A DNA stretch of 52,984 bases from Candidatus Yonathbacteria bacterium (GTDB lineage Bacteria; Patescibacteriota; Minisyncoccia; Phycocordibacterales; JACNGX01): the NCBI GenBank assembly GCA_013334825.1, contig JAAXWR010000002.1, positions 100,025-153,008 on the forward strand, in the 5' to 3' direction. Under the pieces are notes generated by a model, which was not told the origin of the DNA, searched no databases, and was given only the letters and a program-made list of their open reading frames with translations. Numbering within the stretch: position 1 is the first letter of the stretch; every line of letters starts with the position of its first letter. Of the stretch, positions 1,284 to 52,984 are shown one piece after another. The position numbers were made by a program, and so were the translations under genes.

Positions 1284-1961
1284 ATGTTAAAGAAAAAAGA
1301 ACAAGTGCTGTACATTGCACATTCCGCGACAGATTGGCGTAGCCGAATGTTGAGTAATGACGTAGGTGCTTTTGTCATGATTGACGGAGAAGAAAGACGC
1401 CTGTTCCCCAGTGTGACGCAGTTTATTGAGATGATAAAATATCCTGAACATTCAGGATGGAGTCATCTTGATGAGTCACGTCTTTCCTTTGATGCAGAAA
1501 AAGAAACGGTTACCCTTGGAGAGTCAGACGTTTCCGATTCTGTCGGATATATGTGTGGTCGCCCGTATAATCCTGTGGTCTTTCATGCAAATAAGGGACT
1601 TGACTATCGGGAAATACTGAAACAATGTAGCCCCGATATAGCAAGGAAAATTGGATCGAAACTTCGTCCAGGGAGAGTCGTCGTGTATCTGTTTGGTAAG
1701 ACTTATCGGTACGGTTCCGCAGAACATGTTGCGCTTATTGAACAGGCGATTCGGGCAAAGTTTGCGCAAAACGAAACGGCTTTCAAGGCACTTCTTGCCA
1801 CGGAAGGATTGGAGCTTCGCTACGTCCCTCGTCGGGGCAAAGATTCAACACTTTTTTCTGCCGAAATGTTTTGCAAACTTCTCACAGAGATACGTGAAGC
1901 ATGTCTTGCGAAAAGAGATGCATATCGGCAGACATGTACAAACGGATGTGCACAGGTATAA
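1284..1961 (+). CDS. hypothetical protein, weak NADAR (DUF1768)-like
   Basis: 225-aa ORF. Segment AEHVALIEQAIRAKFAQNETAFKALLATEGLEL resembles the NADAR/YbiA helix pattern. The family call is tentative. Confidence 0.45.
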   Translation: MLKKKEQVLYIAHSATDWRSRMLSNDVGAFVMIDGEERRLFPSVTQFIEMIKYPEHSGWSHLDESRLSFDAEKETVTLGESDVSDSVGYMCGRPYNPVVFHANKGLDYREILKQCSPDIARKIGSKLRPGRVVVYLFGKTYRYGSAEHVALIEQAIRAKFAQNETAFKALLATEGLELRYVPRRGKDSTLFSAEMFCKLLTEIREACLAKRDAYRQTCTNGCAQV

Positions 1962-2043
1962 GGAAAACAAAAGCCACAGGGTCATACCTGTGGCGTTTTT
2001 TATATGTGTTATGAAGTGATAGGTGATGTTATACTATATGCAT

Positions 2044-2117
2044 TGCGGGGTCGTCTAACGTGGTAAGACACGGGCGCTTTGAACGCTTGTATCTGGGTTC
2101 GAGCCCTAGCCCCGCAT
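2044..2117 (+). tRNA. tRNA-Gln(UUG), copy 1
   Basis: Cloverleaf read by hand: acceptor TGCGGGG/CCCCGCA, D stem GTCT/AGAC, anticodon loop CTTTGAA (anticodon TTG), T arm CTGGG-TTCGAGC-CCTAG. No encoded CCA. TGTTATACT extended -10 lies upstream. Confidence 0.85.
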
Positions 2118-2387
2118 CAAAAAGCTCGCTTTTTGATGCGGGGAGCGGGGCGACTGCTCGTCCCGCGTCTAGGGTTCGAAAGCCACAGCGATGTCTGAGC
2201 GATTTATCGCGAAGACCGCGAGGAGAATTATTTACGATATGCCGGAATGATTTTAACAGTAATAAAGAAGAAGTATCTTAAATGTGTGCATTTGTCTCAT
2301 AGATTGAAGATATTACACAATACGTTTTTGTATGCAATATAACAAATCTGTTGCGTCTTTTTGGTGATACGGTATTATACTGTATAT

Positions 2388-3104
2388 ATGTCTTTATCTC
2401 ACGAGACGCTGACGGCTCCGGCCGAGGCAGGGTCAGTTGACTCATTAGAAAAACGTTTTAATGAACTAAAGGTCGAAAGAGAAAAAGTAGAACAAAGTAT
2501 TCGAGAGTCTTTCGATATTAAACGCTTGAAGGTGTATGTATCGATAGTTAATAGAGTGCATGCTCAGGAAGGGATAGATGATACCGAGAATATATTACGT
2601 AAGCGTCTTGAAGAGCTCGGAGAAGATTATGATGAATTAAAAAAAATGTATGAAGGATATCTGGCATATAAAGCGCAAAATCTTGATGTTATCGTTACAG
2701 AAATGCAACAAGTACAAGCATCAGCCATTAAAAAGTTTCAAGAAGACATAAAAAGAGACATTGCAGAAGCAGGACTTTTTGCGGAAGCGCTGAAGAGGGA
2801 AAAGGATGTATATCTATTTTCGCTCCTCACTGAGATTGTGCAATATGAAGAAGGTTTCATAGCTTCGGGGAAAAAAGAAGATTCTCTCGATTCAATTCTT
2901 GAGGATCAACCTGCAGATATACAAAAAAAATATTTTGGCTTGAAATGGGCATATAGTGAATTGGAAGCAATGGAGGGGCCCTTTATACAAGGGTCGTATG
3001 ACAGGGAAAGGTTTGTATATGAAATTCTTAAAGATTTGGGCATTACGATTGATACTGGACATTCGTTGATTTTTAATCGTAGAATGGAATCTCTAGAAAG
3101 ATAA
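2388..3104 (+). CDS. hypothetical protein (charged, coiled-coil-like)
   Basis: ATG at 2388 sits 6 nt after TATACT (2376-2381). No recognisable family. Lies between the two identical tRNA-Gln genes. Confidence 0.6.
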   Translation: MSLSHETLTAPAEAGSVDSLEKRFNELKVEREKVEQSIRESFDIKRLKVYVSIVNRVHAQEGIDDTENILRKRLEELGEDYDELKKMYEGYLAYKAQNLDVIVTEMQQVQASAIKKFQEDIKRDIAEAGLFAEALKREKDVYLFSLLTEIVQYEEGFIASGKKEDSLDSILEDQPADIQKKYFGLKWAYSELEAMEGPFIQGSYDRERFVYEILKDLGITIDTGHSLIFNRRMESLER

Positions 3105-3115
3105 TAAATATGACT

Positions 3116-3151
3116 AAACACACGGCGACCTATTTAGGCTGCCGTGTGTTT
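3116..3151 (+). terminator. hairpin after the 2388-3104 gene
   Basis: 11-bp stem aaacacacggc / gccgtgtgttt with a 14-nt loop. Confidence 0.5.
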
Positions 3152-3194
3152 AGTTGGAAACTATTCTAAAAGATATGTTATCATGCACCTATAT

Positions 3195-3268
3195 TGCGGG
3201 GTCGTCTAACGTGGTAAGACACGGGCGCTTTGAACGCTTGTATCTGGGTTCGAGCCCTAGCCCCGCAT
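3195..3268 (+). tRNA. tRNA-Gln(UUG), copy 2
   Basis: Positions 3193-3270 are identical to 2042-2119, giving the same cloverleaf. Confidence 0.85.
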
Positions 3269-3270
3269 CA

Positions 3271-3433
3271 GAGCGAAGCGATGATGTGGGGCTAGGGCTC
3301 GAACGCGGAGGGGGTCGGGGAACCTGTTGGTTCCTTGTGGAGGAAGTACATGGAACCGTGGGTTCCATGAGCGCAGCCCAGCCCTTTCCACCGAAAGGGC
3401 TGGGCGAGCAGTGAGTAGCCCTAGCCCCGCATC
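3271..3433 (+). ncRNA. GC-rich multi-hairpin module ending in a copy of the tRNA-Gln 3' end (function unknown)
   Basis: Perfect stems at 3319-3334, 3349-3369 and 3376-3405. 3288-3304 is the exact complement of tRNA positions 3248-3264. 3417-3433 repeats tRNA 3253-3269. Confidence 0.35.
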
Positions 3434-3469
3434 CTACAATATTTATTCTCATTTCTCATTATTACTACC

Positions 3470-4213
3470 ATGACAAACCTCACAGGAACCATTGCCCTTG
3501 TTACTGGAGCGTCAAAAGGTATCGGACGCGCGACGGCAATCGCCCTCGCGAAGGAAGGGTGTTCGGTCATTATCAATTATAAATCCGACGCCGAAGCAGC
3601 CGCCGATACTCTCAAAGAGTGCGATGCCTATTCACAAGGTAACATGACGATTGTGGCGGATGTTTCGCGCGAAGAGGATGTTGCTCGGATGTTCAACGAT
3701 ATCGAGAGCAGATACTCCCGCCTGGATGTTCTTGTTAACAATGCAGGGATATTTGACGAGCGTGACAGTCCGACAAATATTGAAACATTTGAGCATATAT
3801 ACAGAAATAATTTTCTCAGTGCTGTTATCGTTACCAAATATACACTGTCTCTTATGAAGGAAGGTAAGATTGTGAACGTGTCCTCCATCCATGGGAGACT
3901 TGGGTACGGTCGGCCCGGGGCGATTGCATACGCGGCATTCAAATCTGCACTTGAGAGCTATACGAAAAATCTTGCAAAGGAACTTGCCCCTCATATATGT
4001 GTGAATGCCATTGCCCCTGGGAGAACACTTACACCGATGTGGGGTACTTTGAGTGAGGATGAGCAAAAAGAATTGGGGAAGGGACAGCTCATCGGTCGTA
4101 TGATAGAACCGGAAGAAATTGCCGACGGTATTCTTTTTCTCATCAAAAATGATGCAATGTGTGGCGAAGTGATGACGATGGATGGCGGTATGGGAATCGC
4201 ATATCTCAAATAG
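3470..4213 (+). CDS. SDR-family oxidoreductase (FabG-like)
   Basis: TGASKGIGRA cofactor motif, NNAG, and catalytic YAAFK (YxxxK). Confidence 0.9.
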   Translation: MTNLTGTIALVTGASKGIGRATAIALAKEGCSVIINYKSDAEAAADTLKECDAYSQGNMTIVADVSREEDVARMFNDIESRYSRLDVLVNNAGIFDERDSPTNIETFEHIYRNNFLSAVIVTKYTLSLMKEGKIVNVSSIHGRLGYGRPGAIAYAAFKSALESYTKNLAKELAPHICVNAIAPGRTLTPMWGTLSEDEQKELGKGQLIGRMIEPEEIADGILFLIKNDAMCGEVMTMDGGMGIAYLK

Positions 4214-5503: not shown

Positions 5504-6841
5504 TCATGAAGGGTTTTCGAGCAATACTTTTTTGTTTATCAGAGTAAGCTTACTTTTAAACGACTGCATCAGCTCGCGCTTCTCCGCGACGGTTCCTTTT
5601 TTGAGAATATATTTTGCATAGGATCGTAGGTCTAAGCCGCTCTGGTCGGTTATCTGGTCTTCGGTTAAGCCAAGTACATTATTACGGAAATTACTGAAGC
5701 GCCCCATCTCTTTTTCGAGTTTTTCTTTAATTCCAATCTTATCTATTTGGATCTTGTCTAAGATCGCTAAAAGTTGTTCGACAAGACTGTCCTCACGCAA
5801 ATAGGTGTTTTTACACGACTTGTCATAAAATCGGGTACAGCCATAGTAGATGTAGCTGTTCGTAGATCCGTCTTTTAGATTTTTAAACTTCTCCTGTGCG
5901 GTTATACCAGAATTACATATTCCGCATTTCATCAGGCGAGTAAATGCAAATTCTTTCACCGCTGGCCCATGCGGTTTATGCGAATCAAGTTTTTCCTGGA
6001 CCTTCTTGAATAACTCCTGACTGATGATTGATTCGTGTCGGCCGATATTCCACCTACCACTCTTCCGTGGGTACTCGAGCAGTCCACAGTAAAAAGGATT
6101 TCGGAGAACGGTGTGCACGTTGCTAAGAGTGAAGGGCTTACCACTTTTGGTTCTAAATTTTAGGTCATCCTTCAACCATCTGTATAACGCTCTTCCACTC
6201 CACTTTTCGTACGCCACTTTTTCAAACATGATTTTGATGACGTGAGAGCGTTGAGGATCGAGAATGACGTGGCATTTCTTGGTGCGATCCGGGTGGTTGA
6301 GGTATCCGGTTGGTGCAACACTCGGCCACAGTCCCATTTCAATCCTGGTGCGAAGTCCGCGCTTCACGTTGACACTCTTATTATCGTTATCAAGCTTCGC
6401 CTGACTACAAAGAATCATCAAGAGGAACTTTTCGCTTGGAGAGTTGGTGAAGCGTTGCCCGTACGTTTTTACTTCTATCAGTTTGTGCTGATCCATCAGG
6501 TCAACAATTGAGCCGAGGTCGCCGGCATTTCTTGAGAGGCGATCGGGATGCCAAGCAAGAATACCGCCAAATCGACCCTCTTTAATTTGCCGGATCATCT
6601 CATTGAAGACCGGTCTCTGAGCAGTCTCTTTTGCCGAGTGCGACTCGCGTTTAATCTCTGTCACCTCGATTCCGTCTCGCTGGGCTAACTGCAACATCTC
6701 CTTGATCTGGGAATCGATGGACAGAGCCTGCTTTTCATCCGATTCGCTCGATTTACGGGCGTATAGGCAGTATTTGGGCGCTTCTATAGGAGGCGCCGGG
6801 TCAGAATTCAACTCTAGCGGGTTGCTGATGTGCATACACAC
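5504..6841 (-). CDS. large serine recombinase (resolvase domain + recombinase domain + zinc ribbon)
   Basis: N-terminal YARKSSESDEKQALSIDSQ resolvase-type catalytic Ser region. Later CGICNSG ... YYGC zinc-ribbon-like cysteines. Confidence 0.85.
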   Translation of the reverse strand: MCMHISNPLELNSDPAPPIEAPKYCLYARKSSESDEKQALSIDSQIKEMLQLAQRDGIEVTEIKRESHSAKETAQRPVFNEMIRQIKEGRFGGILAWHPDRLSRNAGDLGSIVDLMDQHKLIEVKTYGQRFTNSPSEKFLLMILCSQAKLDNDNKSVNVKRGLRTRIEMGLWPSVAPTGYLNHPDRTKKCHVILDPQRSHVIKIMFEKVAYEKWSGRALYRWLKDDLKFRTKSGKPFTLSNVHTVLRNPFYCGLLEYPRKSGRWNIGRHESIISQELFKKVQEKLDSHKPHGPAVKEFAFTRLMKCGICNSGITAQEKFKNLKDGSTNSYIYYGCTRFYDKSCKNTYLREDSLVEQLLAILDKIQIDKIGIKEKLEKEMGRFSNFRNNVLGLTEDQITDQSGLDLRSYAKYILKKGTVAEKRELMQSFKSKLTLINKKVLLENPS

Positions 6842-9057: not shown

Positions 9058-9334
9058 TCTTGAGCCTTGTTGTATATAAATTAACCTAAGCTAAGCTAGA
9101 AATAGGTAGCAAATTTTGCTACAATTATTTAACAGTTCGGCCTAAACTTGTCGGTTAACTCCGGCAAGCATGGCAATAAATACCCGCTAGAGATCAAAGG
9201 ACTCCTGGTCAGAGTCACTCTAGCGGGTCATATCTGGAAACAGGTATGGGTTCGGCCGAAAGGTTGGATCGCGATGGTCAGGAGCCTTTTGATTATCTGG
9301 TTCACTCCGTCGATTAAAAACCCGCTAGAAAATT

Positions 9335-9559: not shown

Positions 9560-9790
9560 AGTGTGAATGAATATGTGGAGAAAGGGGTGGATATCTCGCC
9601 TTAGACTTCCGTGGGAGTTTTACCCTTTTTCATTTTTTAAGTATCTATAAAATAGCTTTGTTTTTAGCCAAAGTTGTGTAATCTCTTACCCCAAAATACC
9701 TGTTTTTATGGTGTAAAAGTCGGTATGTATTGGTCATAAAATTCCCCAGTTTTTGTGGAAGATCTGGCGGATAAGATTTTATCGAATTCT

Positions 9791-13223: not shown

Positions 13224-14312
13224 ATGTTTATGTTCTCATCACTATTTGAACGTCAGACAGCAAAACAAGAAGGACAACATGATGTGTATGTCCAACACAA
13301 AGGAAGAGTTGCCGAAGCGGGTGATAGGTTTGTGCACGTCATGGCAGTCACACTTGATCCACAGACGGGTTACAAAGATGGTATTATCCGTTGTATTACG
13401 AGCAGGGAGGGAGAGTATGGTGTTGCTGGACAACTTGATAGAAGTGCATTATTCAAGATAAAAGCGGATTCTCTCGACAAGTTTGAAATTACAGAAGAAC
13501 TCAATATAAAGAATGCCGGGAATGTCATCACCAAGCTTAAAGGTGAAGGCGGAGATTTTATCGGTCTTGAAGATCCAGATATATGGAGAGATGAGGAAAC
13601 TGGATTGATGCATATATATTTTACTATGCCAGTGAAATTGGAAGAGAAAGATGCACAAGGTGATGACATATGGAATGTGCATTTGGGTCATGCTGTTGGA
13701 AAAGATTTGGATTCTTTGGAGATGACGGAACCGACACTCTTGGGAACTGCGGAGATGAATGCGAAAGAAGTGTCTATTGCTCCAAAAAACTCTGAGGGAT
13801 TTCGATACAATCTCTTTGAATCAAGTGATGAAAGAGATGGAGAAACCTATTCTGTCGTGCGTGTTGCGATTGCTCGTGATATGGGGAAGCCGTGGGAACT
13901 CGGAGAAATTGCCTTTCATCCGGCCGAGCACAATATCCCGTGGATTGCAGGACATGCTTCACCTGGCCCTCTTTTGTCGAAGAATTTTATTGATGTAGGA
14001 GAGAATAAATTGCTTGGAATCATGAATGGATGCGAAGCGAATAAGCATGAAGGAGACAAAATCATCTACGGCGCATTCACTGCGGGATTGTATATATATG
14101 ATTATGAAAAGGGAATGATTGATTGGGTTTCACCCGAACCTCTTATCTGGGATACGGAAGCGAGTGCAAAGAGACCTATTACATTTGCCAGTCAATTTGT
14201 GGAAGGTGCGAAAGGAGAGGGAACACTATATGCCCATGTTGATGATTCATTTGTGCGTGCATATACACTGAATGCGGAGGCACTCAAAGCGCTGTTGCCA
14301 GAAAAGAAGTGA
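13224..14312 (+). CDS. hypothetical protein
   Basis: 362-aa ORF. ATG 6 nt after CATAAT (13212-13217). GLEDPDIW is faintly glycosidase-like, but no firm call. Confidence 0.55.
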   Translation: MFMFSSLFERQTAKQEGQHDVYVQHKGRVAEAGDRFVHVMAVTLDPQTGYKDGIIRCITSREGEYGVAGQLDRSALFKIKADSLDKFEITEELNIKNAGNVITKLKGEGGDFIGLEDPDIWRDEETGLMHIYFTMPVKLEEKDAQGDDIWNVHLGHAVGKDLDSLEMTEPTLLGTAEMNAKEVSIAPKNSEGFRYNLFESSDERDGETYSVVRVAIARDMGKPWELGEIAFHPAEHNIPWIAGHASPGPLLSKNFIDVGENKLLGIMNGCEANKHEGDKIIYGAFTAGLYIYDYEKGMIDWVSPEPLIWDTEASAKRPITFASQFVEGAKGEGTLYAHVDDSFVRAYTLNAEALKALLPEKK

Positions 14313-14318
14313 TATTTG

Positions 14319-14350
14319 CTTATCTTTTCAGTGTAAAAAGATAAGTTTTT
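14319..14350 (+). terminator. rho-independent terminator
   Basis: Stem cttatcttt/aaagataag followed by ttttt. Confidence 0.65.
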
Positions 14351-14357
14351 ATGTTTG

Positions 14358-14419
14358 GAAAAAGGCAAAAATCTCTCGCATGTTTGATGTTTTCTGCTAT
14401 AATCGGGGAATGGAAGAAT
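14358..14419 (+). promoter_or_regulatory. repeated promoter/5' module, copy A (TGCTATAAT at 14395-14403)
   Basis: About 62 bp, near-identical to 15448-15510. The -10 ends 6 nt before ATG 14410. Confidence 0.6.
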
Positions 14420-15396
14420 TTCCTCTCAACAAAAAAGAATCGGGAATCAACAGAGTTGTTGGCTTTGACCATGAAAAGGAAACTGATTTTTTGGATTATT
14501 TCAAAGAAAAATTTGAAAGAAATTTTTTAGAATATGGAGAGAGAGAAAAGACCCTCGAAGAAATTGCCATTCTTAATCGTGTTAATAAGGATATGGTAGA
14601 GTTTTTACGGCATTACGGAGTTGAGGCAATTGAGATATCTCCCAATAATATTCATATACTTGATAAATCAAGATTTACTTCAGAAGAATTAAAAAAAATT
14701 CAAGAAAGATTTGGGACAGAGAGTGGTTTCTATTCTTCAAACAAACAAGGAGTCGGGATCATGAAAGATTATGAAGAAAATAAACTTTCTTTTCTTCAAA
14801 CTGTAGTGCATGAAGAACTTCATCTTCAAGGGTTCTATTCGTATCAAAAAAGTCTTCATGAAGGTGCAGAAATTACTTTAAAAAAAGAAGATGATTTGGT
14901 AGATATGAACACCCGAAGATCAGGGTTTTCTATGGGCACCACTGATGGAAAGACTCTGTTTTTTCGTGATGTTAACGAAGCTATCATTACTGAACTGCAA
15001 ATTCGTTTTGAACGTATGTTTTTAGAAAAATATCCCGAGTTAGAATCAGAGTTAGAAGCACGTGATGATTATATACAAGAAGTGGCAAGGAGAGATGATG
15101 CTCCTATAGAAAAAGTAAGAGAAGTGGTTGGAAAAGTCATTATAAATGAGGATGGGGAACGAAAGTGGAGAAGTTATGCATATCATGAAGAGCGCAAGAA
15201 GTTTGCTGAACTTATTGATGAATTGTATAAAAAGAACATGTCAGATTTTGAATCGAGAGAAGATGTGTTTAACCTCTTCGCACAAGCAACTTTGACGGGT
15301 AGGGTTCTCCCTGTTGCAAGATTGATTGAAAAAACATTTGGAAAGGGGGCATTTAGAAAACTCGGTGAAGGAAGTGCAGAGAATTATGTGGAATAA
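14410..15396 (+). CDS. hypothetical protein with HExxH motif (putative metallopeptidase)
   Basis: VVHEELHLQG motif. I place the start at MEEFPLNK because the upstream part of the long ORF is a DNA-level promoter repeat. Confidence 0.55.
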   Translation: MEEFPLNKKESGINRVVGFDHEKETDFLDYFKEKFERNFLEYGEREKTLEEIAILNRVNKDMVEFLRHYGVEAIEISPNNIHILDKSRFTSEELKKIQERFGTESGFYSSNKQGVGIMKDYEENKLSFLQTVVHEELHLQGFYSYQKSLHEGAEITLKKEDDLVDMNTRRSGFSMGTTDGKTLFFRDVNEAIITELQIRFERMFLEKYPELESELEARDDYIQEVARRDDAPIEKVREVVGKVIINEDGERKWRSYAYHEERKKFAELIDELYKKNMSDFESREDVFNLFAQATLTGRVLPVARLIEKTFGKGAFRKLGEGSAENYVE

Positions 15397-15447
15397 CATC
15401 GTATATACTCATGTATATGTTGCGTAAAAGAGACATTTCGCCTACGT

Positions 15448-15510
15448 GAAAAAGGGCAAAAATCTCTCGCATGTTTGATGTTTTCTGCTATAATCGGGGG
15501 ATGGAAGAAT
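15448..15510 (+). promoter_or_regulatory. repeated promoter/5' module, copy B (TGCTATAAT at 15486-15494)
   Basis: Same sequence as copy A with one inserted G and one substitution. The -10 ends 6 nt before ATG 15501. Confidence 0.6.
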
Positions 15511-16286
15511 ATCTTACATTTGCAAAAGAACTCGCCAAAGAGGCCGAGGAAATTGCGTTGAAATATTTCGGTTTTGATACCGAGACGACGTGGAAAGGGG
15601 ATAATACACCGCTGACGCAGGCGGATACGGAAATTAATGATTTGGTTATCCAAAGGGTTAATGAGCGATATCCCGAACACAGTATATATGGAGAAGAGAA
15701 AAGTGATAGAAAAGAAGGTGCCGAATATATCTGGGTGTGTGATCCTATTGATGGCACGATGGCTTTTTCGTGCGGAATGTCAGAGTTTGTATTTTCTATT
15801 GCGTTGGTAAATGTATCAAACGGCTTACCTGTGTTTGGATTGATACATAATCCGATAATGAAAAATACATATTGGGCGCATAAAGATGGCGGAGCATATA
15901 GGGATGGAAAAAAGATTATAGTATTAAAAAAAGAAGATTTTGCAAATACATATTTAAGTACTGGGGCTTCAGGACGTGCACTTGGTTTTTCAAATCTCCC
16001 TCTTTTAAAAACATTGAGTGAAAAGAAATGCGCGACGATGAAATTCCCGGGGTTTATCTATGGTGCGATACAAGTTGCAAATGGAAAATATATCGGCGCA
16101 GTGTATTATCATAAATATGCTCACGATGTCGCCGCGCTCAAGATTATTACCGAGGAAGCGGGTGGCAAAGTAACCGATTTAAATGGAGAAGAAAGGCGAT
16201 ATGATGAAGACGGTCTTGGCTGTATCATTTCAAACGGCATCCTCCATGATGAATTGGTGCAGATTGTGCAGACGGGGAAGGTATAA
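15501..16286 (+). CDS. inositol monophosphatase family protein
   Basis: IYGEE metal site and the WVCDPIDGT signature. Confidence 0.9.
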   Translation: MEEYLTFAKELAKEAEEIALKYFGFDTETTWKGDNTPLTQADTEINDLVIQRVNERYPEHSIYGEEKSDRKEGAEYIWVCDPIDGTMAFSCGMSEFVFSIALVNVSNGLPVFGLIHNPIMKNTYWAHKDGGAYRDGKKIIVLKKEDFANTYLSTGASGRALGFSNLPLLKTLSEKKCATMKFPGFIYGAIQVANGKYIGAVYYHKYAHDVAALKIITEEAGGKVTDLNGEERRYDEDGLGCIISNGILHDELVQIVQTGKV

Positions 16287-19286: not shown

Positions 19287-19501
19287 AAGTTTTTGTGTTA
19301 TACTAGCCTCTTACGAACGAATCTCTCGTCTCTTTTTCTTTTTATGGTCTCGTTTATAGTTTATCGTTTACCGTTTTCTTCTTCATAATTTGCCTTTCGT
19401 ATTCTTGATTCGTGCTTCTTGATTCCCTGCACCACGTAGGATGCAGGGCACGCTTAATTCGAGTGTCCGCCCCTATCACCTCTAACCTATTTCCTCATTT
19501 T
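19287..19501 (+). repeat. pyrimidine-rich mosaic intergenic repeat (family F), locus 1
   Basis: Modules: TTATCGTTT, tcgtattcttgattcgtgcttc, hairpin ccctgca-N10-tgcaggg (19425-19448), cacgcttaattcgagtgtccg, and tatcacctctaacctatttcc. Shared with the loci at 26422, 39202, 42061 and 52597. Confidence 0.85.
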
Positions 19502-20908
19502 ATGTCCAAACTCCTCGAAGGTCCCATCATCACATCACTGCTTGCGCTCGCGGTGCCTATCGTACTTGCCAACATCTTGCAAACCGCATATCAGCTCACG
19601 GACGCTTTTTGGGTCGGACGTCTCGGGGGAGCGGCAGTTGCCGCCGTGTCGGTGTCATTTCCTATCACCTTTCTTCTTATTGCTCTTGGTGGCGGACTTG
19701 CGATTGCTGGCTCTACGTTGATTGCGCAGTACACGGGAGCAAAGAATAAAGAAATGGTCAGTCATGTCGCGGCACAAACGCTTCTCATGGTGTCTGTTGT
19801 GTCTGTCGTTCTCGGTATTATCGGGTATACACTTGCTCCGAGTATCTTGCGTCTTATGGGCGTGACATCTGATGTGTATACTGATGCGCTTGGTTTCATG
19901 CGTGTATCGTTCGTGGGAATCTTGTTCACCTTTATCACTATTATGTTCCAGTCGATTATGCGCGGTATCGGCAAGGCGACATTGCCCATGTATATCGTGT
20001 TGGTAACAGTCGTGCTCAACTTCGCGCTTGATCCATTCTTTATCTTTGGATGGGGAGGATTTCCCGCCTATGGCGTAGCGGGTGCCGCTCTCGCGACATT
20101 TGTGACACAAGCGCTTGCTGCTGTTGCCGGATTGGTCGTTCTTTTTGGTGGTAGACATGGTATCCATTTGAAGGTAAAGGATTTTACTCCTGATGTGCCA
20201 TTTATGCGCAAAGCATTTTTTCTTGGACTGCCTGCATCTATTGAACAATCAACACGCGCGCTTTCAATGACTGTCATGACATTTCTTATTACGAGTTTTG
20301 GTACACTCGCTATTGCTGGGTATGGTGTCGGTTCGAATGTTATTCAGCTTGTCATTATTCCGTCACTTGGTTTATCGATGGCTGTCTCGGCGCTTGTTGG
20401 CCAGAATATTGGTGCAGGGAACATGAAGCGTGCGGAGGATATTGCGCGTCTTGGAGCGATGATTTCATTTGTGGCACTTTCTGTTATTGGTGTCATCTCA
20501 TATATTTTTGCACCTCATATCATGGGATTTTTCGTACCTGGAGATGTGGCTACCATCGCAGTTGGTGTGTCATTTGTCCATGCAGTTGCGCTTACATTTG
20601 GCTTCATAGGTATTCAAATGGCGCTTCTTGGCGTGTTTCGTGCGTCTGGTAATATGATGACAACCATGATTCTGACGCTTGTATCGCAATGGGTACTTCA
20701 ATTTCCTCTTGCATATATTCTTTCCAAACATACTTCGCTCGGTGTGAACGGTATTTGGTGGGCATTTCCACTTACAAATATTCTTACAACGGCAATTACT
20801 ATTCTTTGGTATATGAAGGGAGATTGGAAGAACAAAAAATTGACGAAGGAAGAAAAAATTGAAGAAACTGTTTCCGAAGAAATTTTTGTGGAGGAAGGAG
20901 TGAGATAG
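19502..20908 (+). CDS. MATE family efflux transporter
   Basis: N-terminus PIVLANILQTAYQLTDAFWVGRLG and a 12-TM-like hydrophobic profile. Confidence 0.9.
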   Translation: MSKLLEGPIITSLLALAVPIVLANILQTAYQLTDAFWVGRLGGAAVAAVSVSFPITFLLIALGGGLAIAGSTLIAQYTGAKNKEMVSHVAAQTLLMVSVVSVVLGIIGYTLAPSILRLMGVTSDVYTDALGFMRVSFVGILFTFITIMFQSIMRGIGKATLPMYIVLVTVVLNFALDPFFIFGWGGFPAYGVAGAALATFVTQALAAVAGLVVLFGGRHGIHLKVKDFTPDVPFMRKAFFLGLPASIEQSTRALSMTVMTFLITSFGTLAIAGYGVGSNVIQLVIIPSLGLSMAVSALVGQNIGAGNMKRAEDIARLGAMISFVALSVIGVISYIFAPHIMGFFVPGDVATIAVGVSFVHAVALTFGFIGIQMALLGVFRASGNMMTTMILTLVSQWVLQFPLAYILSKHTSLGVNGIWWAFPLTNILTTAITILWYMKGDWKNKKLTKEEKIEETVSEEIFVEEGVR

Positions 20909-26421: not shown

Positions 26422-26700
26422 AGTATATGGGGAAATAGGTTATAAATATAGGAAAGAGGTTAGAGGAACGGACATTCGAATCAAGCGTGCCCTGCATCCT
26501 ACGTGGTGCAGGGAATCACGAAGCACGAATCAAGAATTAAGGGTTACGAAGTACGAACTTGTACGAACATACGAAACGAGACGGGAATCAAGAATACGAG
26601 AGGCGAATGAAGAAATATGAACGTAGGAAATAGGTTAGAGGTGATAGGTTATAGGGACAGACGGGAAGCATGCTGAGATGTTAGGTTTATTCTTGCGCCT
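26422..26700 (-). repeat. family F intergenic repeat, locus 2 (inverted orientation)
   Basis: Reverse complement carries the same modules, including hairpin 26490-26513 and TAACCTATTTCC (26431-42) 9 nt upstream of the znuA ATG. Confidence 0.85.
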
Positions 26701-33002: not shown

Positions 33003-33022
33003 CAACTATAGTATGCTCCAGT

Positions 33023-33049
33023 GGTAGGGATTATCCCGCAGTCACTAAG
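33023..33049 (-). repeat. partial family-E end (T-arm-like hairpin + TTAGTGAC box)
   Basis: ggtagggattatcccgcagtcactaag versus ggtagggctcgtcccgcagtcactaag at 33570-33596. Confidence 0.7.
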
Positions 33050-33195
33050 TAGGCGGCAGTAGGACTTGAGGTAGAGTAGTTGTTCTCTATGTCTGGAAGT
33101 TTCGAATCAAAGGCTTGCATATATAAAAAAGAACCGCCGACGCTGAGTGAGAAATTTTGACAAACGTCCTTTCTCCTTTCAGTGTGGCGGTTATT

Positions 33196-33474
33196 TCAAT
33201 TTACAAACGGGTGCGATGAGTTTATCCCATACACATAATGCCACGTGTGTGGGAATTGAAAGTACGGAAATGTATCCGCAACTTTCATTGTGATACAAAT
33301 AGACCCGTTGTCACCACTAGAGTGGTAGAAGTTGCCCTCTATACACTCTTTACCACGTCTCCACGCGCATGCGTGAGAATCGGATCCTTTTTTAAAGGTA
33401 ACCTCGTCAGGATTGACTCCTGTTACGATTGCGAAGGCTTTTTTGCCCAAATTTGCCAGATCTTGTCCATTCAT
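33196..33474 (-). CDS. hypothetical protein (cassette 2 downstream of tRNA-Asn)
   Basis: 92-aa ORF lying between two family-E ends. Confidence 0.4.
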   Translation of the reverse strand: MNGQDLANLGKKAFAIVTGVNPDEVTFKKGSDSHACAWRRGKECIEGNFYHSSGDNGSICITMKVADTFPYFQFPHTWHYVYGINSSHPFVN

Positions 33475-33568
33475 ATGAACCCCAGTCGTTTTGATGTTTA
33501 TTTATGTGATGGAACAGTATTAAAATGTATCGTACCATTTATACCATACTTTGTCAAATATATATTAA

Positions 33569-33680
33569 CGGTAGGGCTCGTCCCGCAGTCACTAAGCGGA
33601 TTGCTCCAAGTATTCGCAATCCGCAAAGTGCTGCTCCCCGCGGCGCGGCGACAAGCATGCGCGAACAGGCCACGCATCTT
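33569..33680 (-). repeat. family-E structured element fused to a copy of the tRNA-Asn 3' end
   Basis: The reverse complement aligns along about 110 nt with 43197-43313. Hairpin 33596-33624 has loop GAATACTTGGA. The terminal cggtagggctcg equals the tRNA-Asn 3' region (34431-34442). Confidence 0.8.
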
Positions 33681-33761
33681 ATTGTGTAAAGAGAAAGGCG
33701 GTCATCTCACGATGCCGCCTTGTAAAATACTCTTACAAACACAAATTACAAGCTGTTTTTA

Positions 33762-34304
33762 TTAAACTGCAACAAGCCCGACTTTGGTAGATTCGTACTT
33801 GGCACGGGTGATCATGCCGTTCTGGTCGGTGACAGTTATGCAATCTCCGACTTCCATCACCACCAAAGAATCATACCAGCCGATATTCTCTTTGTCCTGG
33901 CGGACAAAGAAATCAACCGGTCCGGTCGCGTTCTCAATGGCCTTGTTGTGTCCTTCGCGGGAAATGGACATCCCGCGTTCAAACCTCCAAGCGCCTGTGC
34001 ACTTTTGGTTTGAATGTCCGGCAACTGAGTATTGTGCCTTCGTACGAATCACGACGAGTATGTTTTCACTTTCGTGATTCGGCTTTGCCAGGGCGTACCC
34101 GTCACGAATCGGAACAGGGTGTGCTTCCATAATGATGCCAACCCACGGCATCCCAGGACCCTCGATGCGTTCGGCGGGATTTTTGTGGAAGAACGGGATG
34201 TTTTTCTGATTTTTCCCCGCTCCCAAACAAAGGGCGGACACTTTTGATCCAGTACTCATTGCACCGCGGCGGACCTTCTGGTCGGAAATTTCGTAGACGT
34301 TCAT
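33762..34304 (-). CDS. hypothetical protein (cassette 1 downstream of tRNA-Asn)
   Basis: 180-aa ORF with a strong AAGGAGG 5 nt upstream of the ATG. Confidence 0.6.
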   Translation of the reverse strand: MNVYEISDQKVRRGAMSTGSKVSALCLGAGKNQKNIPFFHKNPAERIEGPGMPWVGIIMEAHPVPIRDGYALAKPNHESENILVVIRTKAQYSVAGHSNQKCTGAWRFERGMSISREGHNKAIENATGPVDFFVRQDKENIGWYDSLVVMEVGDCITVTDQNGMITRAKYESTKVGLVAV

Positions 34305-34425
34305 GGCTTCCTCCTTAAGGAAAATCCGACAGCTTTCGCTGGGATTGTTTTAGTGTTTGTGTATAGGTATTGTTGGGAACTTTATTGTGTATATTATACA
34401 CTAGAATAAGTCTATTTGTCAAGTG

Positions 34426-39201: not shown

Positions 39202-39700
39202 GCGGATTAGAAGCGAAAGGTGAGTTTCCCGCGACGTCTCTGCTATGGTGGGGTGGATAAATTTTAAGAATGTTTATGAAGATTACGAATAATGAATGTA
39301 TACGAATACGATTTTTTTTATCGTTTATAGTTTTCTCTTCCCATATTCCTTATTTCTATTTTCTTATTTCATTGTCTATAGTTTTCGTTTTCATATTTCT
39401 ATTTTCTTATTTCATCGTCTATCGTTTATAGTTTTCGTCTTCATATTTCATATTTCATCATTCGTCTTTCGTATTCTTGCTTCATGCTTCGTGATTCGTG
39501 CTTCGAGTATCTGTCCCTATAACCTATCACCTATAACCTCTTTCCTACGTTCATATTTCATCATTCATCTCTCACATTCTTGCTTCATGCTTCGTGATTC
39601 GTGCTTCGAGTATCTGTCCCTATAACCTATCACCTATAACCTCTTTCCTACATTCGTCCGTCCCTATCACCTCTAACCCATTTCCTACATTCATATTCCC
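39202..39700 (+). repeat. family F intergenic repeat, locus 3 (expanded)
   Basis: T/C-rich modules with TTATCGTTT (39318, 39420). Includes the 103-bp tandem duplication and a third partial distal module (39652-39690). Confidence 0.85.
39448..39651 (+). repeat. tandem duplication, 2 x 101 bp (period 103)
   Basis: 39448-39548 and 39551-39651. The distal portion of about 75 nt is identical; the few mismatches are all near the 5' part. Confidence 0.9.
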
Positions 39701-42060: not shown

Positions 42061-42291
42061 GACGAGAAGCAAGAATACGGGAAAACTGGAAGCAAGAATC
42101 ACGAAGCACGAATCAAGAATACGGGAAAACTGGAAGCGCGGGACGAACTTACTGGAAGCAAGCTTGCCATGCACCCTACGTGGTGCAGGGAACATACGAA
42201 CCGAGACGGGAATCAGGAATACGAGACTGAAGGACAGGAGGTGAGAATCAAGACAAAACTGATAGGGAAGCATGGGACAGTGGCGAATACT
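42061..42291 (-). repeat. family F intergenic repeat, locus 4 (inverted orientation)
   Basis: The reverse complement carries tcgtattcttgattcgtgcttcgtgattc modules and a degenerate hairpin (42167-42190). Confidence 0.8.
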
Positions 42292-42959: not shown

Positions 42960-43024
42960 CAAAAAATCTTTAGGTCGCCGAAGAGGCGACCTTTAGATTT
43001 TTCTGTGACCCTACGAGAAAGGCA

Positions 43025-43167
43025 ACTGCTTGCCTTTCGTGGGATTTGAACCGGCGGAGCATATCGCACCAAAAGTGCGATGCGAGCCGCGCCCAGCGGT
43101 ACTTATGAAAATCCGAATACATGGAGGATTTTCATTAGTAACCGCGGGGTCGACTCCCCGTAGGGTC
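43025..43167 (+). repeat. family-E structured module 1 (ends in a tRNA-Glu 3'-end copy)
   Basis: Hairpin atcgcac/gtgcgat, GCCGCGCC box, hairpin 43106-43134 with loop GAATACATGGA, TTAGTAAC, T-arm-like cgggg-tcgact-ccccg, then tagggtc. Confidence 0.8.
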
Positions 43168-43170
43168 TTT

Positions 43171-43313
43171 ATATGAGTCGAACGGCGCAAGGCGGTATAC
43201 AAGATGCGCGACTTGTTCGCGCATGCTTGTCGCCGCGCCGCGTCCAGGAGTACTTAGTAGATTGCGAATACTTGGAGCAATCTACTTAGTAACTCCGGGA
43301 CGACTCCCCGTAA
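43171..43313 (+). repeat. family-E structured module 2
   Basis: Hairpin atgcgcga/tcgcgcat, GCCGCGCC box, hairpin 43257-43285 with loop GAATACTTGGA, TTAGTAAC, then ccgggacgactccccgta. Confidence 0.8.
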
Positions 43314-43318
43314 ATCGG

Positions 43319-43470
43319 ACTGCTTGCCTTTCGTGGGATTTGAACCGGCGGAGCATATCGCACCAAAAGTGCGATGCGAGCCGCGCCCAGTAACCCTTTG
43401 CATATTCCGAATACCTGGAGTAATATACGTAATAATCGGTAATAATCGCGGGACGATTTCCCGTAGGGTG
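43319..43470 (+). repeat. family-E structured module 3
   Basis: 43319-43390 is identical to 43025-43096. Degenerate hairpin with loop GAATACCTGGA (43409-19). Ends cgcgggacgatttcccgtagggtg. Confidence 0.75.
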
Positions 43471-52596: not shown

Positions 52597-52645
52597 CAAC
52601 ATTTTTTCTAGCCTATCTCCTATAACCTATTTCCTATTTCCTACT
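52597..52645 (+). repeat. family F intergenic repeat, short locus 5
   Basis: cctatctcctataacctatttcctatttcctact immediately upstream of ATG 52646. Confidence 0.7.
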
Positions 52646-52984
52646 ATGTCTTACCAAATCGCACACAGAGGATGGTCACAAGATGACCCAGAAGAGAATA
52701 CGCGCGCGGCGTTTCGTCGTGCCGAAGAAGCAGGTGTACACGGTGTTGAGTTTGATGTTCGGTGGAGTGACGCACGCGCGGAGCCGGTCGTGTGCCATTA
52801 TCCGTGGCAAGAAAAAGACGCTGAATCACTTGATCAGGCGCTCGCATTTCTTTCTACGACAACGTTCTCCATTCTTCTTCTTGAACTCAAAGAATACCAT
52901 CCGTTTTTGTGGTCAGAAATCAAACGTCTGCTCTTGTATTATGGGATTATGGACAGAACGGTTATTTTTGCGTTTCCACGTATA
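52646..52984 (+). CDS. glycerophosphodiester phosphodiesterase family protein (3' end outside window)
   Basis: My own translation: MSYQIAHRGWSQDDPEENTRAAFRRAEEAGVHGVEFDVRW... contains the GDPD signature HRG-x-ENT-x-AF-x-A-x-G-x-E-DV. Open to the window end. Confidence 0.8.
   Translation, partial: MSYQIAHRGWSQDDPEENTRAAFRRAEEAGVHGVEFDVRWSDARAEPVVCHYPWQEKDAESLDQALAFLSTTTFSILLLELKEYHPFLWSEIKRLLLYYGIMDRTVIFAFPRI

Follow-up and report, generated by a model that had tools for sequence, protein, structure and literature searches.

What is the GC-rich, multi-hairpin segment that follows the second tRNA-Gln gene of a Candidatus Yonathbacteria genome and repeats the end of that tRNA at both of its own ends? 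The segment lies in a 52,984-nt stretch of DNA (the window, throughout its full length), in which a sequence-only reading of positions 3271-3433 had described three perfect hairpins between an inverted and a direct copy of the tRNA end. That observation is correct and lies well above chance expectation. The hairpins proved exact on direct inspection at 3319-3334 (GGAACC-TGTT-GGTTCC), 3349-3369 (CATGGAACC-GTG-GGTTCCATG) and 3376-3405, positions 3288-3304 are the exact reverse complement of tRNA positions 3248-3264, positions 3417-3433 are identical to tRNA-Gln positions 3253-3269, and 3271-3433 has 63% GC, where the window as a whole has 43% and the upstream segment 38%. The inverted repeat exceeds the length first claimed, with 28-nt arms (3243-3270 and 3282-3309; 89% complementary) lying 11 nt apart, and two G.U pairs extend the first hairpin to 3317-3336. 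The 17-mer AGCCCTAGCCCCGCATC occurs at four sites in the window (≤2 mismatches), namely both tRNA genes plus the direct and inverted copies, against 0.01 expected, and four sites were reached in none of 100 shuffles. The segment was also predicted to fold with -98.1 kcal/mol (z = -7.95) when read as the + strand and with -87.7 kcal/mol (z = -7.6) as the - strand, energies that no shuffle equalled. The proposed mimicry of an acceptor/T stem is real at the level of sequence. The proposed interval needed trimming: a covariance model places the element at 3283-3434, and the first 12 nt (3271-3282) are a spacer outside the fold.

Searches for a known identity returned no confident RNA match over the module at either gathering or permissive thresholds. 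Rfam 15 recognized only LOOT and three tRNAs in the whole window at gathering thresholds; at E ≤ 10 over 1950-3500 it returned tRNA-Gln(UUG) at 2044-2117 and 3195-3268, the rest being weak, chance-level matches far below threshold, which over the module comprised generic hairpin 'miRNA' models and other weak ones. An origin from IS200/IS605 elements, omega-RNA or IS110 bridge RNA was rejected as no IS605-orfB, HEARO or related Rfam match was obtained; the neighbours of the module are a tRNA and an SDR gene, and terminal inverted arms are present, unlike in IS200/IS605-derived elements. Scans of IMG/VR with the tRNA end, the 12-bp hairpin and two core patterns gave one chance match, in a high-GC coding region (L014), and blastn of the module against phage and plasmid collections gave none. 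No description of such an element was found in the literature searched, whose incomplete coverage makes this weak evidence of novelty. A small protein encoded by ORF 3154-3414 (+) or 3189-3452 (-) is refuted for practical purposes. Both frames are open, and gene callers did call the + strand ORF on Logan contigs, but a comparison with 5.8 billion proteins gave it no homologue, Pfam matches are lacking for both ORFs, both cross a tRNA gene, and the indels and whole hairpin insertions that separate family members do not preserve the reading frame. The earlier suspicion that these ORFs are artefacts is upheld. Neither of the two outcomes named as refuting the sequence-only reading, a confident Rfam match or a conserved protein from an overlapping ORF, was observed.

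To place the module among relatives, a search pattern was built from it and one Saccharibacteria relative. The core pattern matched 88 metagenome loci, and the resulting covariance model, R1, yielded 97 matches (79 distinct) in 712 kb, full-length in 77 of the 79 distinct copies and compact in all 79. Positions 3283-3434 (+) are the sole R1 copy in the window (78.9 bits, E 1.3e-17, match 1-134 of 134). The module is thus a copy of a large uncatalogued family of GC-rich elements, 115-160 nt long, that sit directly 3' of tRNA genes: a tRNA on the same strand ends ≤216 nt upstream in 64 of the 79 distinct copies, usually at 6-60 nt, and these tRNAs cover 16 amino-acid specificities. The hosts are CPR/Patescibacteria, the window being Parcubacteria-like with a Ca. 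Yonathbacteria MAG as its closest relative, and one other copy lying in a Saccharibacteria MAG. A 'second family of tRNA-anchored structured elements', one of three options raised by the sequence-only reading, accordingly finds its support in the 79 distinct homologues that follow tRNA genes and whose stems covary. The module at tRNA-Glu has the like architecture and unrelated sequence that had been reported for it.

The shared anatomy is a three-way-junction core, comprising two purine-rich junction strands, two covarying hairpins and optional extra hairpins, enclosed by a closing helix (P1) whose inner ~10 bp are T-loop/T-stem-like and whose outer 7-12 bp are specific to the upstream tRNA. 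Of all cells, 83.9% were paired (shuffles, 70.6%), both sides vary in 24 of 34 pairs, and the covariation score was 0.323 against 0.126 in shuffles (none of 500 as high) and 0.07-0.10 for slid partners, while RNAalifold recovered P2 and part of P1 from a structure-blind alignment. Covariation across homologous loci, which had been suggested as a check of the fold, thus bears it out.

In the window, the anchor is tRNA-Gln(UUG) copy 2 (3195-3269, +; found by ARAGORN and Rfam, 41.8 bits against a threshold of 29 for the Rfam tRNA model), which is identical to copy 1 (2042-2119) at 78 of 78 nt and whose 3' end is copied to both module ends. Its 3' part, here called A (3243-3270, +), comprises the T-arm, the acceptor 3' strand, the discriminator and 2 nt more, and recurs inverted and direct downstream, as delimited by the inverted repeat and the 17-mer statistics. 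The spacer GAGCGAAGCGAT (3271-3282, +) forms the loop of the palindrome between A and its inverted copy A', and contains GCGAAGC (3273-3279), an exceptionally stable DNA mini-hairpin whose motif is also found in the spacers of L032, L083 and L098. A' itself (GATGTGGGGCTAGGGCTCGAAC, 3283-3304, +; from sequence and covariance model) is the 5' strand of P1 and is complementary, by Watson-Crick pairing, to the T-loop of the tRNA and to the 3' strands of its T-stem and acceptor; at the G.U pair of the tRNA T-stem, A' complements the base of the 3' strand instead of repeating the 5' base of the tRNA itself. The conserved purine-rich junction J1/2 follows (GCGGAGGGGGTC, 3305-3316, +), with the family consensus ACGnGRARGGGGUC (GnGRARGGGGUC for 3305-3316) and columns that are invariant or near-invariant in a 44-sequence MAFFT alignment. 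Hairpin P2 (GGGGAACC-TGTT-GGTTCCTT, 3317-3336, +), recovered by both covariation and RNAalifold, is paired in 98% of cells with GC<->AU and AU<->CG exchanges, and is joined by J2/3 (GTGGAGGAAGTA, 3337-3348, +; family consensus GUGGNGGAAG, invariant columns) to hairpin P3 (3349-3369, +), which keeps its pairing across 25 distinct sequences, its apical AACCG..GGTT being conserved and the base of its stem covarying. The 12-bp perfect stem P4 (3376-3405, +) is an optional third hairpin, an insertion relative to the model that is lineage-specific and absent from minimal family members. J4/1 (GAGCAGTGAGT, 3406-3416, +) holds an altered T-loop copy in which GTGAG replaces GTTCG and, facing CGAAC of A', gives tandem G.A/A.G pairs; the GTTCGAT and GTGAGAT variants both recur across the family. 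The final segment, A2 (3417-3433, +), is the 3' strand of P1 and the exact direct copy of tRNA positions 3253-3269, that is, the T-stem 3' strand, the acceptor 3' strand, U73 and C. The start codon of the SDR gene lies 36 nt past the module end.

Which strand matters can be read from the non-canonical pairs. P2 holds 13 G.U against 1 A.C, from which the tRNA (+) strand is the one under selection; A.C 'mismatches' in P3 were discarded as a strand signal, being due to a bulged A in one subfamily. The P2 and P3 loops are often of GNRA type (GGGA, GGAA, GCAA, GCGA). Conserved unpaired junctions across distant CPR lineages are more typical of an RNA with a partner or a catalytic core than of junk DNA. 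Together with the strand bias, the common GNRA-type loops and the covariation of stems around these junctions, they favour a host-useful small RNA that mimics the tRNA acceptor/T-arm and whose arm identity to the tRNA is functional, a possibility that we consider real but on balance doubtful. Under this reading RNase P, RNase Z and/or RNase III would cut the module from the tRNA transcript, CCA may be received or already encoded, and the module would act through its core, for instance by protein binding or by diverting or buffering enzymes or toxins that recognize tRNA acceptor stems as a decoy would. The location of many copies within tRNA operons is in keeping with it; the next tRNA gene starts ≤50 nt past the module in eight copies. 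So is the 3' arm of 10 of 46 loci, which carries N73-CCA, in eight of them behind a tRNA gene that itself lacks CCA (CAA, CAT or CAC in its place); the latter hints at a function or an RNA intermediate.

Known tRNA mimics offer a partial parallel. In the tmRNA domain, MALAT1 mascRNA and viral tRNA-like structures, an acceptor-/T-stem helix also closes a non-tRNA body, and the present modules add the N73-CCA encoded by some copies and, in a second family described below, a hairpin at the position of the D/anticodon arms. Unlike these mimics, the module has no T-loop, its core sitting in that position; its helix is continuous with the discriminator usually paired, and its acceptor sequence follows that of the neighbouring tRNA. 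ARAGORN reported five tRNAs only and no tmRNA in the window, and the Rfam tRNA, tmRNA and mascRNA models gave no match to 3283-3434. A likeness to the tmRNA 5' end was dismissed, only a T-loop-derived UUCGA-like string being common to both. The continuous helix of ~20 bp, which usually runs through the discriminator and C74 without a T-loop, would also make a poor substrate for RNase P or RNase Z. A T-box-like reading of NCCA by the UGGN of GUGGNGGAAG was rejected too: the N tracks the subfamily and is independent of the discriminator, leaving no such reading evident in support of a host RNA.

The arms themselves speak against selection for mimicry. Among the 64 tRNA-linked loci the 3' arm is identical to the tRNA end at 14 of 14 positions in 39, and the 5' arm is complementary to it at 13-14 of 14 positions in most. 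At tRNA G.U pairs, the 5' arm complements the base of the 3' strand in 4 of 4 cases, and where the 3' arm has drifted the 5' arm still tracks the tRNA, by 10 to 2, so that this drift is uncompensated; the outer part of P1 is paired in 79% of cells, against 98% for P2. The arms look templated from the tRNA rather than selected, a view to which the non-complementary 5' arm of a tRNA-Tyr copy in L033 (see below) adds, and we count this in favour of a mobile cassette over a host RNA. The restriction of modules to some tRNA genes only also weighs against a host RNA, and among 11 GTDB loci that share the tRNA-Gln 3' end, 10 are without the module, which is therefore not a property of the tRNA-Gln sequence.

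The 3' arm is at the same time one end of a direct repeat, which runs from the T-loop to between +2 and ~+60 nt beyond the tRNA end. It spans 17 nt in the window and 35 nt in L033, and in L016, L038 and L102 it comprises the tRNA end together with the entire terminator. As in integrase-borne islands of tRNA genes, for which the T-loop is one of the classical sublocations of crossover, the insert lies between direct repeats of the 3' part of the tRNA (3253-3269 = 3417-3433) and the tRNA stays intact; tRNA genes are hot spots in this window too. The module might thus be the decayed attL/attR scar of an island once seated in the tRNA gene: direct repeats of tRNA 3' ends do flank real islands here, including a partial copy of the tRNA-Asn end 1.4 kb downstream (33014), and a serine integrase lies close by (5504-6841). 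Unlike such islands, the module has no integrase or cargo between the repeats, gains an extra inverted copy and contains a conserved 100-nt fold. Island remains were rejected as the content of the insert, there being no ORF with homologues and 79 distinct copies that are complete and covarying. Independent decay is ruled out because the shared core and covarying stems of these compact copies, spread over distant lineages, cannot arise by convergent decay. The miniature integrative scar, proposed at first sight, is consequently the weakest of the three original options and is effectively refuted.

A living attachment site fares somewhat better, though we still judge it unlikely. Here the arms of a miniature integrative element would anneal in single-stranded DNA into a duplex tRNA 3' end, and a recombinase would exchange strands with the chromosomal tRNA gene, as for the CTX attP hairpin or an integron attC. 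CTX phage reportedly uses a folded attP(+) hairpin to exploit Xer recombination. Like this hairpin, the module has inverted copies of its target ~90-110 nt apart that could anneal within one strand to mimic the duplex target, and its integrated order (target copy, element, inverted site, loop, target copy), observed at 3243-3433 and across the family, matches the predicted one of tRNA end, element rest, inverted arm, core loop and direct arm, the two inverted target-like arms being ~110 nt apart. Further points in favour are the structure kept on one strand only, the recurrence of GCGAAGC at palindrome centres and in the core, tandem arrays (in L023 and L082, as also known for CTX), and serine-integrase genes near modules in the window, L043, L054 and L062. 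Unlike CTX, the module targets the 3' ends of many tRNA genes rather than dif, is shorter than 200 nt, gene-free and variable in its repeat boundaries, and has a conserved covarying three-way junction as its loop; single-strand phage genes near the module were absent. The circle would measure only ~170-200 nt and have no gene for replication or recombination, the direct repeat varies at its right end between +2 and ~+60 nt, which does not suit a fixed crossover point, and most copies have no adjacent integrase. The tRNA-Tyr copy of L033, moreover, has a perfect 35-nt direct repeat (T-loop to +18) and a non-complementary 5' arm, so that its arms are unable to fold into such a site.

With integron attC sites, which at 57-141 nt are of comparable length, the module shares one-strand structure conservation, imperfect inverted arms and inner boxes near RYYYAAC...GTTRRRY, the inner arm ends ATCGAAC...GTTCGAT matching at 6 of 7 positions; this likeness of only 6 of 7 coincides with the T-loop. 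An attC proper was rejected, the copies lying behind tRNA genes and often between two tRNAs, and the annotated parts of the window showing neither a cassette array nor a gene for an integron integrase. The module further differs from attC in lying neither at cassette ends nor in arrays with an integron integrase, and in its tRNA-derived arms and strongly conserved junction; conserved unpaired junctions with covarying stems are unlike known attC or attP hairpins.

Small dispersed repeats provide another comparison. The module resembles transcribed, folding MITEs and palindromic elements of bacteria (Correia/NEMIS of Neisseria, Rickettsia palindromic elements, ERIC and REP/REPIN) in being small, non-coding, multi-copy and GC-rich against a reduced genome, in having terminal inverted repeats that would give a long transcript hairpin, and in its probable co-transcription with neighbouring genes. 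MITEs have terminal repeats that are constant within a family and a short target duplication of fixed length. A MITE, in the sense of a non-autonomous derivative of a DDE transposon, was rejected on both counts: the outer 7-12 bp of the module vary per locus and equal the end of the local tRNA, only the inner ~10 bp being constant, and a fixed-length duplication is absent, the direct repeat starting in the T-loop and ending anywhere from +2 to ~+60 nt. Unlike in MITEs, the interior junctions are also conserved while the stems covary.

Evidence of movement comes from within single contigs and from synteny. On L033, cores that are 100% identical over the aligned positions (72 nt) lie behind tRNA-Tyr and tRNA-Glu, each with the 3' arm specific to its own tRNA, and the shared sequence extends on both sides of the variable 5' arm. 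On L036, two copies at two tRNAs have lineage-specific optional hairpins in common, and the tandem arrays of L023 and L082 also speak for mobility. At the syntenic Yonathbacteria locus L103, the tRNA-Gln(UUG), the spacer (AGAGCGAAGCGATGAT) and the SDR gene downstream agree with those of the window but accompany an unrelated core that R1 did not match; unrelated cores at the same site in relatives would be unusual for a housekeeping RNA. No pair of empty and filled versions of an otherwise identical site occurred among the fetched loci, a set chosen for module presence, and no transposase, integrase or reverse transcriptase was consistently adjacent to copies.

The tRNA-Glu and tRNA-Gln copy-1 modules, which R1 did not match even at E ≤ 10, are members of a second family, whose flanks are likewise derived from the tRNA. 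Here a constant hairpin splits the 5' arm where the D and anticodon arms of a tRNA would emerge, giving an order of acceptor strand, hairpin and T-stem strand that favours a host RNA; it goes beyond simple flank copying and looks like a selected tRNA-like topology. The ACTGCT loop of this hairpin was rejected as an anticodon mimic, being identical behind tRNA-Gln and tRNA-Glu. Constant sequence flanking variable, target-matched segments, in L033 and around the constant hairpin of the second family, also recalls IS110 bridge RNA and the tigRNA of TIGR-Tas, in which a constant scaffold carries two variable segments for the two strands of one target. The core could on this basis be a protein-binding scaffold, and the arms programmable guides to both strands of the tRNA 3' end (or to the tRNA) that would steer an RNA-guided enzyme, a recombinase or nuclease, whose gene lies elsewhere in the genome. 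The arms do fit both strands of one target and the junctions are highly conserved, as would be expected of a protein scaffold, yet we hold a guide RNA to be very unlikely. Unlike bridge RNA and tigRNA, the variable segments are mutually paired in the predicted fold, the module has no effector gene next to it, and neither sequence nor structure model shows any similarity, the bridge-RNA, omega-RNA and CRISPR families of Rfam being unmatched. The target is, besides, always the immediate neighbour, for which local copying is the cheaper explanation.

The position between a tRNA and a coding gene raises a last alternative, a cis-acting terminator or attenuator for the tRNA or an SDR leader, switching between a hairpin of the tRNA end with the 5' arm and the closed module. 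The sequence allows three pairings that exclude one another; when tRNA and module are folded together, the structure of minimum energy joins the 3' half of the tRNA to the 5' arm and the 5' acceptor strand of the tRNA to the 3' arm. The proximity of the SDR start codon would suit a leader. We nevertheless regard this as highly improbable. An intrinsic terminator was rejected for want of a T-run after any of the stems, P4 being followed by GAGCAGTGAG, and no terminator-like site was found between the tRNA and the SDR gene (scan of 3270-4213). Downstream neighbours vary by locus (other tRNAs, terminators, unrelated genes), and terminator-like hairpins, where present, lie outside the module.

Taken together, we favour, at about even confidence and with a mechanism that we infer, a structured, non-autonomous cassette that is anchored at tRNAs, spreads from one tRNA gene to another and is co-transcribed with the tRNA. 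The cassette would be installed just behind an intact tRNA by recombination or copy-choice anchored on the near-palindromic T-loop GTTCGAA, and the same event would copy the target 3' end to both sides of the core, producing the direct repeat that leaves the tRNA whole as well as the inverted repeat. It would have no promoter of its own and be transcribed from the tRNA promoter within a tRNA(-mRNA) transcript, in keeping with a promoter-like site ahead of tRNA-Gln at 3155-3184, with the lack of a terminator-like site before the SDR gene and with the eight copies closely followed by another tRNA gene. Selection would keep the + strand fold, probably because a compact, helix-closed insert spares tRNA folding and permits excision by dsRNA- or tRNA-processing enzymes; the fold may also aid propagation of the element itself. 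Counted against the cassette are the missing filled/empty pair, the lack of a consistently adjacent transposase, integrase or reverse transcriptase, the junction conservation, the split arm of the second family and the N73-CCA arms.

More tentatively, the modules may represent a new class of tRNA-anchored element, distinct from MITEs and integrase islands, which either arises by target-templated insertion or has cores that scaffold guide or decoy RNAs, their two arms recognizing the two strands of a tRNA acceptor end. In the templated version, the insertion would use the target tRNA gene as template and add its 3' end on each side of a structured core that can be exchanged, through copy-choice or fold-back synthesis on the palindromic T-loop and possibly by way of a CCA-tailed RNA or a dumb-bell single-strand circle. 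Sibling families share the same 'socket', and this may be a so far unknown way to move or program nucleic acid in CPR.

Overall, the module family is apparently undescribed, and the evidence points to a tRNA-anchored mobile cassette or a tRNA-mimicking RNA of a kind not yet catalogued. CPR/Patescibacteria account for a large share of bacterial diversity and have tiny genomes; to our knowledge they are almost unexplored at the RNA level and cannot yet be grown alone. The modules have practical consequences for the study of these genomes, as they break assemblies (Logan contigs end within the repeat), yield spurious ORF calls and could be mistaken for tRNA fragments or for att sites in island prediction. 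A GC-rich structured element that recurs behind many tRNA genes, has no Rfam entry and fits both arms to each tRNA would be new in one of two ways, as a class of RNAs that mimic tRNA or as a mode of mobility templated by the target. If the module acts as an RNA, it would give access to the biology of tRNA processing, decoys or quality control in CPR; if it is mobile DNA, it would be an element that acquires its target sequence at insertion, and possibly a programmable insertion principle.

Behind tRNA-Gln(UUG) copy 2 (3195-3269, + strand), a 12-nt spacer that includes GCGAAGC (3271-3282) leads into a folded module (3283-3434, + strand) closed by two arms related to the tRNA end. Apart from one G.U-compatible change, the 5′ arm GATGTGGGGCTAGGGCTCGAAC (3283-3304) is complementary to the tRNA's T-loop and to the 3′ strands of its T-stem and acceptor stem; the 3′ arm (3417-3433) is an exact copy of tRNA positions 3253-3269, and three perfect hairpins lie at 3319-34, 3349-69 and 3376-3405. 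The sequence-only reading had described these hairpins and the inverted and direct tRNA-end copies, all of which are present as stated, and its remark on GC richness holds (63% GC vs 43% for the whole window). The inverted-repeat arms reach 28 nt each, the 17-mer of the tRNA end occurs four times in the window vs 0.01 expected (the inverted copy counted with one mismatch), and no other sequence within the window resembles the module interior. Two Logan contigs, assembled from other runs, match without a difference and stop within the repeat. A promoter-like site (3155-3184) stands directly ahead of the tRNA, no terminator-like site was found in the window between the tRNA and the SDR gene, which starts 36 nt past the module end, and a terminator scan ruled out the module as an intrinsic terminator. 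The minimum-energy fold of tRNA plus module (3195-3440) was predicted at −149 kcal/mol (z −10.6), with the tRNA 3′ half paired to the 5′ arm and the 5′ acceptor strand to the distal 3′ arm, which gives the transcript competing folds; in place of a tRNA and a closed module, the co-transcript could in principle form a single giant molecule resembling a tRNA.

Scanning the tRNA-Gln 3′ end in one genome per species gave 11 loci, one of which, in a Saccharibacteria MAG, has a clearly homologous module behind tRNA-Gln(CUG), with three hairpins of different sequence in the same places and identical linkers (TAGGGCTCGAACG, GGGGTCGGG, GTGGNGGAAGTA). A linker-based pattern then yielded 88 metagenome loci, mainly from groundwater and sediment assemblies, of which two were chance matches in high-GC coding DNA. 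A covariance model (R1; 134 positions, 34 pairs), built from an alignment of 44 representatives, returned 97 hits (79 distinct) in all fetched sequence (712 kb), recovered additional copies that the linker pattern had missed, and matched the window solely at 3283-3434 (78.9 bits). With 79 distinct homologous copies and covarying stems, the earlier proposal of a tRNA-anchored structured element is borne out, whereas its option of a miniature integrative-element scar falls, because the copies are complete and covarying rather than the remains of a decayed integrase site. An Rfam search without a match ruled out a known RNA family; a protein gene was likewise ruled out, the + strand ORF having no homologues and the ORFs no Pfam match, in line with the earlier view of them as probable artefacts. 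The module was absent from the phage and plasmid collections examined, the elements are not classical MITEs because outer arms and duplication length vary, and no description of such an element was found in the literature covered, which was partial.

The shared fold is closed by helix P1, whose inner part sets GGAWTCGAAC opposite GTTCGAWTCC or GTGAGAWTCC, the latter producing tandem G.A/A.G. Junction J1/2, (AC)GnGRARGGGGUC, leads to hairpin P2 (about 8 bp, GGGRAAAC/GUUUYCCC and variants, plus an invariant C-G pair extending the stem); J2/3, GUGGNGGAAG, sometimes followed by an extra hairpin, leads to hairpin P3, with a conserved AACCG..GGUU apex and a covarying stem base. An optional further hairpin, in the window the 12-bp stem at 3376-3405 and commonly a site of GCGAAGC mini-hairpins, precedes the 3′ strand of P1, the last part of the module. 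In the model-fitted alignment of homologous loci, 83.9% of cells are paired vs 70.6% in shuffles, 24 of the 34 pairs change on both sides, and the covariation score is 0.323 vs 0.126 shuffled and 0.07-0.10 with slid partners, the observed values being reached by none of 500 shuffles. A structure-blind MAFFT alignment gives P2 pairing in nearly all 44 sequences, with three pairs in 44/44 and exchanges between GC and AU (25:19) and AU and CG (35:9); distinct pairing-preserving sequences number 41 for P2 and 25 for P3. Predicted folding is extreme on both strands (z about −8); non-Watson-Crick pairs in P2 comprise 13 G.U vs 1 A.C, and structural selection therefore acts on the tRNA strand. GNRA-type loops are frequent, which pulls against arms that are templated and decaying, and conservation of the unpaired junctions extends across CPR lineages that are very far apart, like that of RNAs possessing a partner or an active site. 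Two more specific alternatives are a folded single-strand att site, which we regard as improbable, and a guide RNA, which is very improbable.

Same-strand tRNA ends lie at most 216 nt upstream, usually 6-60 nt, in 64 of the 79 distinct copies, the other 15 being mostly at contig ends or behind a tRNA 3′ end uncalled by ARAGORN. The anchoring tRNAs span 16 amino-acid specificities, the 3′ arm equals the end of its own upstream tRNA at 14/14 positions in 39 loci, and the complement of the 5′ arm matches the tRNA end at 13-14/14 in most. In eight copies the next tRNA gene begins no more than 50 nt after the module, which places them inside tRNA operons. Amongst 46 well-matched loci (including L015, L018, L029, L046, L050, L063, L083 and L085), the 3′ arm ends N73-CCA in ten, and eight of the ten lie behind a tRNA gene with CAA, CAT or CAC after the discriminator; in the window (3431-3436) the tRNA gene has U-CAG vs U-CCU in the module. 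Selection for a tRNA-like 3′ end, or an origin by way of a CCA-tailed RNA, could account for this suggestive enrichment. Behind tRNA-Thr(GGU) on contig L033 (about 9620-9700), a hairpin is followed by GAGGTCA-[TCCCGAC CCAG TCGGGA]-TCAACGGCTCA, a miniature of the theme in which the T-arm/acceptor end is copied and the T-arm swapped for another hairpin. In these genomes, duplicated tRNA tails seem to be frequent.

A second family occupies the same tRNA-derived socket (window 2119-2215, 42961-43460 and, on the − strand, 33578-33680; 1804-2036 and 2929-3236 on L103, a syntenic Ca. Yonathbacteria locus) and is not matched by R1, in agreement with the earlier view that the tRNA-Glu module has the same architecture and an unrelated sequence. 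Its 5′ arm is split into acceptor complement, constant hairpin (..GCGACTGCTCGC.. / ..GCAACTGCTTGC..) and T-stem complement, re-matched behind tRNA-Gln(UUG), tRNA-Gln(CUG) and tRNA-Glu; it also has a long hairpin (GTACTTAGTA...TACTTAGTAAC), and behind tRNA-Glu it forms a tandem, partly mosaic array. This gives it the topology of a tRNA, in which a single hairpin stands where the D arm and anticodon arm would be and the T-loop contains the core; such a layout pulls against templated arms. Further cores fill the same socket behind first-family modules at three loci (L027, L029, L068).

Outer P1 pairs at 79% vs 98% for P2. At 12 positions the 3′ arm has diverged from the tRNA by drift, and at 10 of them the 5′ arm keeps to the tRNA; at G.U pairs in the tRNA's own stems the 5′ arm is the Watson-Crick complement of the 3′ strand (4/4 cases), behaviour seen by eye in the tRNA-Glu module also. 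In the recent tRNA-Tyr copy on L033, a direct repeat of 35 nt runs without mismatch from the T-loop until 18 nt beyond the tRNA, but the 5′ arm shows no complementarity. The right end of the direct repeat differs among loci, from +2 nt up to the whole terminator. These observations, small in number, suggest target-templated arms: each new copy would take its arm sequences from the target, after which they decay instead of being maintained through selection on pairing. The conserved junctions, the GNRA-type loops, the N73-CCA ends, the tRNA topology of the second family and the competing transcript folds pull the opposite way. A host-useful tRNA-mimic RNA is the main rival, albeit an unlikely one. 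How copies would be made, any processing of the RNA and any role it may have are matters that we infer.

Several other features were recorded in the window. A full-length LOOT RNA (Rfam RF03000) lies at 9139-9270 (+), with 79.1 bits vs a threshold of 46.4. About 700 nt beyond tRNA-Gln(CUG) there is a phage-type large serine recombinase (5504-6841, − strand; PHROG integrase, E 7e-67), with homologues (35-51% identity) near modules at three fetched loci (L043, 936-2234; L054; L062) and another (33%) at L012, near a tRNA-Gln gene without a module. The 3′ end of tRNA-Asn recurs 1.4 kb downstream of that gene as a partial direct copy (13/15 nt), which delimits a small island (33014-34424, − strand) with two short ORFs and a reverse-oriented second-family module. 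Directly past the tRNA-Glu array, an OLD-family ATPase/TOPRIM nuclease and then a UvrD-like helicase (43597-47579, +) form a Gabija-like defence pair, such as an island in a tRNA hot spot would be expected to carry. An AT-rich intergenic repeat family unrelated to the tRNA modules (19382-19514, 26431-26661, 39342-39700, 42082-42226, 52609-52646) has units, for instance CCTATCACCTATAACC and TTCGTATTCTTGATTCGTGCTTC, that occur in either orientation and in short tandem arrays. A 67-nt direct repeat (14356-14422 and 15447-15513, 94% identical) ahead of two adjacent ORFs (13224-14312 and 14272-15396, about 370 aa each, without Pfam match) resembles a promoter or leader region that was duplicated.

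On L033, two copies behind tRNA-Tyr and tRNA-Glu have cores 100% identical over 72 aligned positions, each with a 3′ arm specific to its own tRNA; at L036, two copies at different tRNAs share lineage-specific optional hairpins (86% identity), and in L023 and L082 a unit made up of tRNA end, spacer, inverted arm and core is repeated in tandem. The SDR gene downstream has its closest relative (79% identical) in the Ca. Yonathbacteria MAG of L103, which is syntenic with the window (orf1284 homologue, tRNA-Gln(UUG), SDR gene, tRNA-Gln(CUG)). There the tRNA is nearly identical, its 3′ end identical and the spacer AGAGCGAAGCGATGAT exactly shared, but the core between the arms is unrelated, is not matched by R1, and is homologous to the tRNA-Glu modules and to the half-module behind tRNA-Gln copy 1 (2119-2215). 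In the window, tRNA-Gln(UUG) is duplicated whole (2042-2119 and 3193-3270, 78/78 nt identical), bracketing a 1.07-kb low-GC (38%) segment with an ORF (2361-3104) lacking Pfam, PHROG or NCBIfam matches. As L103 has a single tRNA-Gln(UUG) and lacks 2216-3194, the second tRNA copy and this ORF were inserted in the lineage leading to the window, an event that cut the older module at about 2215. Anatomy, conservation, strand and tRNA linkage are shown, together with core exchange at one orthologous site, the most telling evidence for what would be turnover and spread. The likeliest reading, held with moderate confidence, is a structured, non-autonomous cassette that is anchored at tRNA genes and transcribed together with the tRNA, its arms templated by the target. 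Ultimately, the finding is real, and behind it stands a widespread family of which the window's module is the visible tip.
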